This document shows, piece by piece, positions 9,001 to 12,000 of a DNA stretch of 30,291 nt. Position 1 is the stretch's first letter. Each line of letters begins with the position of its first letter. A program made the position numbers. Source of the stretch: a virus (Duplodnaviria; Heunggongvirae; Uroviricota; Caudoviricetes); IMG/VR virus record IMGVR_UViG_2737471839_000025, positions 1 to 30,291 of that record. The stretch is one strand, 5' to 3'.

Positions 9001-12000
9001 ATGATGTATTTTTTGATGTTTGACATCTGTTCATATCCTCACAGATAAAAAATCGCCCTCACATTGGAGGGCAAAGAAGATTTCCAATAATCAGAACAAG
9101 TCGGCTCCTGTTTAGTTACGAGCGACATTGCTCCGTGTATTCACTCGTTGGAATGAATACACAGTGCTTATTCGTACTAATAAAATACCCAATTTTCTGT
9201 TTCTTGGTTGTGTCCAAAGTTATATTCAATATCTGGTGTTGATGTATCAATATTCTTCATACCATCAACAAGAGTTGATACAACAGCCAAATCTTGTTTG
9301 ATTCTCATTAAATGGTATTTCTTCCGGCGCAATAAACTTTCAATGGCAAGTTTCTTCGTTGGGAATGCAAAAGATCTTTCTGCATTTTTTGCTACTTTCT
9401 TAATTGCATATCTATTTCTCCTTTGTTTCCATTCCTGTAACCACTGATTTGGTGCTGGTTTAAAATTAACAATCCAATGCGCAGGAACCAACCATGCATA
9501 ATGCTCTGTCTGATGAAAAGCTATATATTGAAGTGCGAATATTTTTATCCCATCTTCTTCAACTGTCGCCTGGAATCTCCAGAAAACAGGCATTCCATCA
9601 TGTTCAGTTTCTGATTCAGGAAAAGGTACGCTCCATGATTTTGTCATATCTCACCTCAAATAAGTGGTTTGCTGCCTAATTTCATTTTCTGGCGACCAAC
9701 ACAAGTCACCTCGCCGTCAGTTGTTTTGATTTCCGGTAGCCTGCCGCGTAAATGGCTACGTTTGGAAGACATACACCAGTTTCTGGTTGCTTATGTCCAA
9801 ACTCATTCGCGTACACAATGGCCGCTCGCTCCAGATTGCGTCTGTATTCTTTCTGTTGCCAGATCACGTCCTGTGCCATGAACTTAATTGGCTTAGCGTC
9901 TTCTATGCGCTCAGGCGTTTCGTGAGTACCTTTAGCCTGAATCTGCGCTCTGCTTAGAGTAGGGCGGTGTAATACTTCTGAACTTATTGCTTCTTCGCGG
10001 GCCAGTACGCCGTTAGCTAATGCCTTTGCCTTTAAACGCTCACGACGACGAGAACGTGAATTGCCTTTGAACTGAGTTCTGCGTGTCATATAGACCTCCT
10101 GATGAACTTTGGTGGTGTGGTAGGTGGGAGACCCATTTCGACCTGTTTCGGCCTACTTCAATTCGGCAATAGTCCCGCAGGCCTCGCCGCTTTACGTGCG
10201 ACATATTCCCGTCCATGAACCCTTCACCACACCCCAAAGTTCACTTTGGTTATTGCGCTTTGTCAGCGCCGTAGATTCATATTCGAATCGTTGTATATTC
10301 ACCGCCCTGGTGAGTAATGCGTCCTGCTGACGACGATAATAATGAACCAATAGTTCGACATTATCAAGAACTATTGGTACGAATTTTGGTGATTTATTAA
10401 CTCTACGAAGTATGATTCTGATATATAAGGAAATTTATTTTTGAAAATGTGGCTGATGAAGGTTATGCGGCAGGGATCATAACTGCATGGTTTAGCGAGT
10501 TACATCAATAAATACAATTGGTTATGTTTTTTAGGTGGGCGAACGTGAGGCAAAGAAAACCCGGCGCTGAGGCCGGGCTAGATTTTAAAGTATTTATCTT
10601 TTAGAGATGTAGATGTAAAACTTTTCGCCTTTGAAAATTTTTTGTCATCAGAAGGGCTTATGAACTCATCTTTTTTGTAGGGAACCGCTAATGCTGCATC
10701 ACGTCTGCGAGGCAGCTTGCTTACTTCCTCGCGCTTTTTCATGATCAGTTATCCTTTAATAACCTATACAGTTTTGTAGGGGTACATCCTGAGGATATTG
10801 TTAAGTTCGTAGCACGCCTTTTCCGCCCATCATCGTATAAACGAAAACCAGTAGTAGACGAATTTTCTGCGTCAAAAACTATAGACAGTATAGCGTCCCC
10901 AGACTTTTTTTGCCATTCGCATGTGCCGTTAGTTGGTTTCGTCATCTGTAGACGCCAGTCAAGAACGCCATCACTTATAGCTGAGAGATCGTTTAGTACA
11001 TCTAGTACGGATTGATATCTTTCATTTGGATCTACATGAATGCATTTGTTCACTATTGTTATTAATTTTTTATGTATATGGGGAGGATACTCTTTTAATG
11101 GATAGCAGCCATTAATTATCGACTCTCTGAGTTGTTCAATCGTGCTAAATGCAGATCTTTCTCTTTCAAAATTATCATGTCCAACACACATTCTATATAT
11201 GGTTAATCCTGCCTGATATATGTCATATGTGAAATTATAATCATTTGTTGATAAAGAAAAATATTCCGGTGGCACATGAAAATGATATCCAAACTCAGGC
11301 GCAGCTCTCGATTCCTCATTGACTAACTGAGATAATCCAAAGTCAGATAGCATGGCCTCATTTCTGTTTGATATCATAATGTTATTAGGTTTTATATCAA
11401 AATGCATAAGACCTTTTGAGTGTATATGATAAAGTCCACTTAAAAATTGAATGGAATACCGTATTATCTCCCTGCTTGTAAGATTATTTTTTTTCATTAA
11501 TTGGTTTAGCGAACCATTATGATAAAATGGCATGGCTATATAGATATTGCTCTCACATTGAGCAGCATACTGAACTTGCACAATATTTGGATGTGCATGT
11601 TTATAGAGAAGCCTTGCTTCATTAAAGTAGTCGTCGTGGTTAGTGTTTTCTTTTTTTTCTATTTCTTTAATCACCAAGTCATGAGCTAGGTGTCTGTCAT
11701 GAGCCAGATATACTTTTGAAAAACAACCCTGTTCTTCTAGATCACTAATCCATTCGAATTCTACATCAGCTCTTTTGTATGGAGTTAGCATCCCCTTACC
11801 TCCGCAGATAGTGCAGCCAAAACAGCTTCATTTGTTTCAGTTGTAAAACCAGAATTATCGATTCCATTTATATTGCGGTGTGACTTCAATATTTCTTTAT
11901 ACTCGATCTCTGTTAGGTTCAATGATGATTTCATGCCAGATTTTCTAATAGTGTAATATTTTCTTACATCACTGCTTGAAAATGCTTCTTGAATAACAGC

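Follow-up and report, generated by a model that had tools for sequence, protein, structure and literature searches.

L0079 of the Shiga-toxin phage 933W, a small basic protein encoded behind N, as a possible early counter-defence effector

The DNA analysed here (the window, 30,291 nucleotides, positions 1 to 30,291 of the IMG/VR record IMGVR_UViG_2737471839_000025) is that of the Shiga-toxin phage 933W. Its leftward early (pL) strand carries, next to the antiterminator gene N, an open reading frame whose product starts with MTKSWSVPFPESETEHDGMPVFWRFQ and which corresponds to 933W L0079 (AAD25424), HK97 Gp45 and phi24B vb_24B_11c (Table 1). An earlier note, made from the sequence alone, had described an unrecognised 156-aa gene between N and ea10; its coordinates and peptide were confirmed, whereas the gene proved to be already annotated under these three names, as "hypothetical" in every case. 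A Shine-Dalgarno sequence, GAGGTGAG, is located 2-10 nt upstream of the L0079 ATG (about 9650-9657). The genes kil and cIII lie beside L0079 in the 933W early region, and Gam, Abc2 and recombination genes belong to the same operon as L0079/gp45. The downstream neighbour, ea10/ssb, forms a gene-plus-terminator cassette of its own (terminator 8634..8615) that is missing from HK97.

Table 1. Features of the L0079 locus, in window coordinates and in the order of leftward transcription.
Feature	Position	Strand	Description or basis
N antiterminator	9706..10089	minus	upstream gene, same transcription unit as L0079
N-L0079 spacer, 58 nt	9648..9705	minus	N stop codon to L0079 start
L0079 CDS, 156 aa	9177..9647, including stop codon	minus	ORF list; 100% identity to annotated gene
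First 3' UTR hairpin, 12-bp	9130..9167	minus	formed by the inverted repeat
Inverted repeat GTGTATTCA-N10-TGAATACAC	9135..9162	minus	sequence read
Intrinsic terminator	9045..9074 (hairpin 9074..9053)	minus	GCCCTC-CAATGT-GAGGGC then TTTTTT; terminator scan
ea10/ssb	8658..9026	minus	downstream neighbour of L0079

Judged by comparison with its homologues, L0079 is a true, well-conserved coding gene. Codon-position differences amount to 48/29/96 against the Pectobacterium homologue and to 51/37/93 against the Brenneria one, and the protein is under clear purifying selection. The PHROG 1636 profile matches L0079 over its full length (residues 1-156/156, E = 2.7e-112), and HK97 gp45, phi24B vb_24B_11c and PHROG 1636 present no sequence difference from L0079, all of them being without an assigned function. 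The HK97 ORF is likewise 471 nt long; over the 3' end and UTR that were compared HK97 does not differ from 933W, and N, gene, UTR and terminator follow one another as they do in 933W. The gene is carried by 933W, phi24B, Stx1 and Stx2 converting phages and HK97, and it is present in 598 of 5,426 complete E. coli genomes (11%, about 1 in 9); it is absent from lambda and from many lambdoid phages. A literature search on L0079, HK97 gp45, vb_24B_11c, their PHROGs or the peptide found nothing relevant.

In both 933W and HK97, L0079 is located upstream of the first intrinsic terminator after pL/N, which is reached 103 nt past the L0079 stop codon, and a terminator scan of the spacer that separates it from N detected no terminator-like hairpin. 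Since the gene precedes the first intrinsic terminator, it would be co-produced with N independently of antitermination. This layout suggests an immediate-early timing of expression, with L0079 and N both being produced within the first minutes of infection or induction. A consensus scan of the minus strand between 9648 and 10300 returned no sigma-70-like site, a weak or non-consensus promoter still being possible. In the Stx phage phi296, the cassette occupies the N-ea10 slot directly after ral and the terminator of ral, so that expression ahead of the first terminator is not general in the L0079 family.

The region that follows the gene is structured. It had been proposed that the gene sits between an inverted repeat and a terminator; both elements exist, but both are 3' of the gene on the coding strand and do not flank it. 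The core of the repeat is perfect (9135-9143 / 9154-9162) and its extended arms cover 9130-9146 and 9151-9167; by our own estimate, about 900 nt of sequence would contain by chance roughly 0.03 perfect 9-bp repeats with a short loop. HK97, phi296 and two E. coli prophages carry the same repeat without any change, and the complete 3' UTR is nearly invariant among these and 933W. When its folding was compared with that of shuffled sequence, the whole UTR scored z = -4.87, with 0/200 shuffles as good. The same terminator is marked as a putative terminator in the HK97 annotation. A search of the UTR against Rfam produced no match, neither at the gathering score nor at E <= 1.

The composition of L0079 departs from that of its surroundings, as the earlier note had judged by eye, with a GC content of 35.7% (GC3 26.8%) versus 49% in N, 52% in bet and 47.3% in the window. 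The sequences of HK97 and phi296 part from 933W directly after the terminator, which identifies the terminator as a mosaic boundary of the cassette, and one E. coli prophage keeps the L0079 gene with the UTR replaced right after the stop codon; the mosaic joints thus coincide exactly with either the terminator or the stop codon. In addition, the cassette is found at unrelated positions, namely after N, after ral and before xis. By these sequence criteria, gene, structured 3' UTR and terminator form one horizontally mobile cassette, placed directly behind N in the pL operon. A link to the type of N was ruled out, as the N-like genes that accompany L0079 in phi296 and other prophages are different ones, and distant relatives occur in the absence of any N. 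The moron concept reportedly arose from the comparison of the HK97 and HK022 genomes. Like lambdoid morons, L0079 shows a deviant base composition, its own terminator and mosaic joints at the cassette edges, and it is inserted between conserved genes. Unlike them, it has no detected promoter of its own for expression in the repressed prophage, and its dependence on pL would place expression in lytic growth and not in the lysogen.

The L0079 protein has a mass of 18.6 kDa and a pI of 9.07, with a net charge of +14 within residues 57-117 and both termini acidic. The maximum Kyte-Doolittle mean over 19 residues is 0.56; hence no hydrophobic or membrane segment is present and the protein should be soluble, as had been proposed. 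The basic segment contains the family-wide motif K..V.K...RFAF.TK..A..SL..RK..QL.HLK, while the Enterobacterales clade additionally conserves an N-terminal peptide in which V7, P8 and P10 are invariant. The family comprises 87 representative clusters at E <= 1e-3, mostly of 130-160 aa, which fall in PHROGs 1636, 13631, 25384 and 28215, all function-unassigned. In a wide alignment of 80 members, 79 match PHROG 1636 and 70 match PHROG 13631. Members are found in many Gammaproteobacterial phages, ranging from Vibrio and Pseudomonas phages up to large virulent phages. The long matches P0066 and P0080, which resembled family fusions, turned out to be spurious, both being repeat proteins.

The remote-homology searches and structure prediction that had been recommended did not connect L0079 with any known anti-defence or defence protein, and they brought up no clear structural or housekeeping homologue either. 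Scans of the protein against Pfam, NCBIfam and PADLOC gave nothing above noise, and the same holds for Pfam applied to all 80 family members; in PADLOC-DB 2.0 the only hit was a chance-level one to Cas1_II (E = 0.018, 12.4 bits). Sequence searches of the PDB with the close and the wide profile returned no match, and a GIY-YIG candidate (1zg2, E = 0.52) was dismissed because its motif spacing is unsuitable. An AlphaFold2 (AF2) model built with close homologues only (pLDDT 59.5) was superseded by one from a deep alignment, which predicts an alpha/beta fold with a pLDDT of 95.9 and a pTM of 0.82. A structure search of BFVD with this model retrieved 13 matches at E <= 1e-3, all of them uncharacterised phage proteins, including those of N4-like phages and of Erwinia phage phiEa2809. 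The corresponding search of the PDB revealed no solved-structure neighbour, and the Tudor/SH3-like small beta-barrels of PipX and of the UvrD/PcrA C-terminal domain did not superpose significantly. The L0079 family is phage-restricted, with a confidently predicted fold that lacks a solved neighbour.

The family gene always belongs to an early operon, in temperate as well as in large virulent phages. Its DNA-metabolism neighbours include RecT, YqaJ, Erf, SSB, RdgC, NAD-ligase, ParB-like proteins, RusA and replication initiators, and in Bas81 and NX263 it leads a small operon that also encodes a ParB-like protein. An all-against-all BLAST of the neighbours identified no conserved partner gene, which argues that L0079 acts solo; genes of about 300 aa that overlap the start of the family gene from upstream in two of the loci (L016 and L022) are unrelated and do not constitute such a partner. 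In two metagenomic phages (L016 and L021), no more than about 1.3 kb separates a distant relative from a Lar gene, and DNA methyltransferases are encoded near the members of Medea1, LIET2, Touem01, L011, L012 and L013; such ral, Lar and methyltransferase neighbours may be no more frequent here than beside any other early-operon gene. Members are also present in virulent phages (LIET2 and a contig with rIIA/rIIB and a ligase), indicating a role in the lytic cycle.

The slot between N and ea10 holds sieB, orf28 and ral in lambda, and the precedent that the earlier note drew from it therefore stands, the more so as the phi296 gene follows ral. Like lambda Ral (PF11058) and Rac Lar (PF14354), L0079 is a small accessory gene on the pL strand in an N-proximal slot, and through this association a role against restriction is plausible. 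L0079 differs in size from Ral (156 aa versus 66 aa) and has no sequence similarity to these proteins: it gave no Pfam match and, against Ral, a BLASTP E value of 24, whereas lambda Ral, used as a control, matches PF11058 at 1.6e-48. Moreover, L0079 is not a replacement of ral, because both coexist in phi296. Ral stimulates type I methylation, a mechanism that should not be presumed for L0079, whose fold has no solved-structure neighbour. Phage T7 Ocr and ArdA represent another precedent, that of stand-alone early proteins that are expressed first and disable nucleases, and the pre-terminator position of L0079 would confer a similar timing. Both, however, are strongly acidic, with a pI of about 4 (bioRxiv 10.1101/2023.04.06.535777), while the pI of 9.07, the +14 basic core and the absence of a PDB fold match argue against a DNA mimic of the Ocr/ArdA type. 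A published scan with the anti-defence module of DefenseFinder, which covered phages with L0079, listed methyltransferases, Ral and Gam and nothing else (PMC12502783). In the parts of the supplements of both Silas et al. accessory-gene papers that were available, the L0079 peptide was not found. The orf184 of that work resides in an accessory region shared with ral and triggers gop-beta-cII; since it starts with MEALVVERSEDGYWT, orf184 is not L0079.

Taken together, the reading that we favour, with a probability of roughly 0.35, is that L0079 is an early stand-alone effector whose basic face binds either nucleic acid or an acidic protein of the host, thereby countering a nuclease-type host defence. 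The contact would be provided by this conserved face, which covers approximately residues 57-117 and includes K84, K87, R91, R108 and K109, nucleic-acid binding being suggested by charge alone. Such binding would neutralise a nuclease-type barrier, for example restriction or a defence of that sort, or protect the early phage DNA in some other way. L0079 would operate in the functional neighbourhood of Ral, Lar, Gam, Abc2 and phage methyltransferases, and its mechanism would differ from theirs, given that its structure is unrelated. We infer this counter-defence role for a protein in which sequence and fold searches revealed no similarity to any known anti-defence protein, and the anti-defence conclusion would thus still be one of guilt by association. 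In a more ambitious and tentative version, L0079/gp45 might be the founder of a widespread, structurally new family of small basic early counter-defence proteins, produced with the first early transcript or shortly afterwards and disabling a nuclease-based immunity of the host through a mechanism unlike those of Ral, Ocr and Gam, that would form part of the host-range equipment of Stx phages, and its structured 3' UTR might in addition yield a phage small RNA.

The DNA-metabolism neighbours fit equally well a function internal to the phage, in which a basic protein would act as a DNA-transaction or regulatory factor that tunes recombination, the start of replication, the handling of DNA ends or early transcription. 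The operon and strand held in common with exo/bet/gam, Erf/Abc2 and the RecT/YqaJ, ParB-like plus RusA and other genes listed above point in this direction, together with the conservation of the basic core and the leading position before the ParB-like gene in Bas81 and NX263. We give this account slightly less credence than the favoured reading, as the distribution of L0079 marks it as dispensable (lambda does without it and 11% of the complete E. coli genomes have it), its foreign composition and moving cassette are typical of accessory cargo, and no conserved partner gene accompanies it. A host take-over factor unconnected with immunity, comparable to Kil or other early host-killing genes and inhibiting or redirecting a conserved host machine such as transcription, RNA decay, division or metabolism, would suit a solo gene in an early position beside kil and cIII; its presence in many Gammaproteobacterial phages is consistent with a conserved host target, for which the N-terminal peptide of the Enterobacterales clade could be a docking motif. 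Such a role seems unlikely, however, in view of the lack of any sign of toxicity or of a partner protein and of any fold match to known host-inhibitor proteins.

An exclusion function has its precedent in SieB of lambda and P22 (PF14163), whose gene occupies the same N-ea10 interval in lambda. SieB is a membrane protein expressed in the lysogen from a promoter of its own, and L0079 could be its analogue in prophage defence or superinfection exclusion, an idea with which the AT-rich, moron-like cassette with its own terminator and the neighbouring 933W exclusion genes agree (the Stk kinase matches the PADLOC PD-T4-6/mad6 models). Lambda sieB is nevertheless on the opposite strand, whereas L0079 shares the strand of pL, which is under CI repression in the lysogen, and nothing resembling a promoter precedes the gene on that strand. 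The protein, soluble and devoid of a transmembrane segment, has neither a PADLOC match nor a Pfam match to SieB (BLASTP E = 0.21 over 14 residues; the lambda SieB control matches PF14163 at 1e-29), and relatives reside in virulent phages, for which there is no lysogen to defend. An exclusion role is accordingly improbable, and of the earlier proposal of an anti-defence or defence factor, the defence half is disfavoured while the premise about the slot, with its Ral/Lar neighbours, holds. Finally, the protein itself could be incidental, and the element under selection would be the structured 3' UTR plus terminator, serving as a 3'-UTR-derived small RNA or as a processing or retroregulation site. 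The folding score and near-invariance of the UTR accord with this explanation, which we consider highly improbable: the protein retains 55-85% identity across genera in which the UTR is not conserved, its purifying selection is clear, one prophage swaps the UTR and keeps the gene, and Rfam offers no match.

Whichever explanation applies, HK97 gp45 constitutes a homologue that is amenable to ordinary genetics. Should L0079 be a DNA-handling accessory protein instead, the outcome would be a routine gain in annotation. If the early counter-defence reading of L0079 is true, a new protein fold and mechanism would be added to the anti-immunity repertoire, it would help to explain which strains are convertible by Stx phages, and a function would be provided for a family whose members reach from phages of Vibrio and Pseudomonas to large virulent ones.

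The 721-bp query across the L0079 region is 100% identical to AF125520 8359-9079 (phage 933W, whose coordinates are those of the window minus 641), and the 156-aa peptide quoted in the earlier note is indeed encoded there, by a minus-strand ORF whose annotation reads L0079 'hypothetical protein'. HK97 carries this gene as Gp45 and phi24B as vb_24B_11c. Among 5,426 complete E. coli genomes, 598 contain it at ≥95% identity; a genome may hold as many as four copies, and the annotation never goes beyond 'hypothetical'. L0079 has long been annotated and is one more uncharacterised member of a well-known accessory-gene hot spot. 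A literature search returned no mention of L0079, of HK97 gp45 in this sense, of vb_24B_11c, or of the PHROG ids, accession numbers or peptide. The DefenseFinder anti-defence module, applied to EHEC phages in a 2025 paper (PMC12502783), reported only methyltransferases, Ral and Gam; phi296, phi345 and phi419 from that study carry the L0079 gene. Silas et al., in their accessory-gene screens, covered ral together with orf184 of the same accessory region; orf184 is a different protein from L0079, whose peptide is absent from the supplements searched.

L0079 is a genuine gene, as its homologues, codon-position pattern, GC contrast and protein properties attest. Homologues of 55-85% identity are present in Pectobacterium, Brenneria, Cronobacter, Rosenbergiella and Symbiopectobacterium prophages, and comparison with two of them gives substitutions by codon position of 48/29/96 and 51/37/93, the signature of purifying selection on a protein. 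The GC content is 35.7% (GC3 26.8%), compared with 49% in N and 52% in bet. The protein has a pI of 9.07, a net charge of +14 over residues 57-117, acidic N- and C-termini, and no hydrophobic segment. This charge excludes that it acts as a DNA mimic.

The protein matches nothing in Pfam, NCBIfam or PADLOC. Pfam holds Ral and SieB models, which the lambda proteins match, and BLASTP aligns L0079 with lambda Ral and SieB no better than chance would. The sole family assignment is PHROG 1636, of unknown function, and by sequence the protein resembles no characterised one. A close-homologue profile searched against 1.84 billion representative proteins recovered 87 clusters at E ≤ 1e-3, most of 130-160 aa and aligning at profile positions ~20-140, with members all in PHROGs of unknown function. 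They share an N-terminal beta region (Y-Y-R...E.G...HET), a basic motif (K..V.K...RFAF.TK..A..SL..RK..QL.HLK) and a conserved, aromatic-acidic C-terminus. With an 80-sequence alignment AlphaFold2 yields a confident model (pLDDT 95.9, pTM 0.82; pLDDT 59.5 with close homologues alone), in which long beta strands (19-30, 33-46, 50-55), short helices and a strand at 83-86 precede a 33-residue helix (98-130) and an ordered C-terminal tail. At E ≤ 1e-3 Foldseek finds nothing in the PDB and 13 matches in BFVD, all uncharacterised phage proteins, including those of Erwinia phiEa2809, of the N4-like phages Achromobacter phiAxp-3 and Delftia RG-2014, and of phages of Rhizobium, Sinorhizobium, Cellulophaga and Tenacibaculum. 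Pantoea phage LIET2 may carry two paralogues (L010 4001-4456, 5842-6273): gp069 is a sequence-level member, for gp064 (143 aa) the annotation gives similarity to phiEa2809 NW77_134, and BFVD has a 143-aa phiEa2809 protein among the structural matches to the L0079 model.

Features of the leftward early region and other elements of the window
Feature	Coordinates	Strand	Remark
Promoter-like site	10367..10339	minus	possibly pL; unannotated as such in the record; then nutL
N	10089..9706	minus	
N-L0079 spacer		minus	58 nt, with Shine-Dalgarno GAGGTGAG
L0079	9647..9177	minus	156 aa
L0079 3' UTR	9045-9176	minus	~130 nt
Inverted-repeat hairpin	9167..9130	minus	then second hairpin
Intrinsic terminator	9074..9053	minus	with T tract
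ea10/ssb	9026..8658	minus	
Second terminator	8634..8615	minus	then cIII
cIII thermoregulator	8540-8598	minus	Rfam RF01804, 88.5 bits
Stk	10745-11791	minus	348-aa Ser/Thr kinase
sRNA-Xcc1	3598-3686	minus	69.3 bits, E = 8e-11
isrK	17374-17450	plus	74.7 bits
C4 antisense RNA	17476-17559	plus	66.7 bits

The earlier note had placed the gene between the inverted repeat and the terminator; both lie 3' of it. Since no terminator is found between N and L0079 in 933W or HK97, the gene should, to judge from this layout, be carried on the N-independent immediate-early transcript of both phages, a placement that fails for phi296. The cIII thermoregulator lies upstream of and overlaps the cIII start, as in lambda. 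Above the Rfam gathering score are sRNA-Xcc1, in the early-left region past exo, and the adjacent isrK Hfq-binding sRNA and C4 antisense RNA. In the cI-side operon, Stk matches the PADLOC models mad6 (6.7e-50) and many PD-T4-6 (down to 1e-37), which would fit a prophage-encoded kinase defence. Stk is reported to exclude HK97.

From the end of the L0079 gene, HK97 and 933W are identical over the 3' UTR and as far as the terminator; right after it they diverge. The HK97 sequence then resumes with what follows ea10 in 933W, so that ea10 and its terminator form a second gene-plus-terminator cassette, missing from HK97. In both HK97 and phi296 the L0079 terminator runs directly to the second terminator and cIII, ea10 being absent (window 8615-9026 versus L004 5540-5610 in HK97). 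In the Stx phage phi296, N is followed by two small ORFs and by ral with its terminator; next comes the L0079 homologue, with UTR and terminator as in 933W, and then kil and gam. Two E. coli prophages carry the gene behind different N-like genes, one E. coli strain keeps it with the UTR swapped directly after the stop codon, and in Pectobacterium and Brenneria prophages the homologue closes the series of early-left genes, with xis-int next. The 3' UTR hardly varies between 933W, HK97, phi296 and two E. coli prophages. It contains three hairpins, among them the inverted repeat and the terminator, and its MFE is -47.5 kcal/mol (z = -4.87), a stability that none of 200 shuffles reached. Rfam has no match for it; it may give rise to a small RNA or act as a processing/retroregulation site.

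About 24 family contexts were inspected. Those with recognisable neighbours place the member in an early-gene or accessory-gene region, and prophage contexts on the same strand as recombination or replication genes. As a plain tally over these contexts, ral lies directly upstream in phi296, Lar genes above the Pfam gathering score within ~1.3 kb in two metagenomic phages, and C5 or N6 DNA methyltransferases within ~3 kb in Medea1, LIET2, Touem01 and three further loci (L011, L012, L013), and farther off in the metagenomic phage L016 and Vibrio phage 1.032.O. In metagenomic phage L021 (8733-10305) a Lar-like gene is found 1.3 kb downstream of the member, and after it come an RtcB RNA ligase and a DnaT-like gene, a possible counter-defence/repair cluster. 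Other recurrent neighbours are Gam or Abc2, RecT, YqaJ, Erf, SSB, RdgC, RtcB, NAD-ligase, and ParB-like with RusA. No conserved partner gene emerged among the neighbours compared, and the protein therefore acts on its own. The family also occurs in virulent-looking phages (LIET2, a contig that carries rIIA/rIIB plus ligase, and the N4-like phages among the structural matches).

L0079 is left as an early, basic protein that acts alone and belongs to a family confined to phages; its conserved basic face suggests binding to nucleic acid or an acidic partner. Cassette mobility, patchy distribution, ral/Lar/methyltransferase/Gam company and, in 933W and HK97, expression at the earliest possible point favour a counter-defence or anti-nuclease effector, tentatively, at a probability of about 0.35. 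The recombination and replication neighbours point to a phage-internal DNA-transaction or regulatory accessory factor, which is a possible reading close in likelihood. The coexistence of ral and the L0079 homologue excludes a replacement for Ral.

The earlier note had proposed an anti-defence or defence factor; the former is reasonable, though unproven, and the latter unlikely. A SieB-like prophage defence is improbable given the location on the pL strand without a promoter-like site, the soluble protein and the relatives in virulent phages. A non-immune host take-over factor is somewhat less doubtful, still unlikely beside the counter-defence reading, and the most improbable reading of all is that selection acts on an RNA element, the ORF being incidental. 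Family breadth, a confident predicted fold without a solved neighbour, and presence in Stx phages and HK97, hosts of the gene in which direct testing is possible, raise L0079 above the ordinary.
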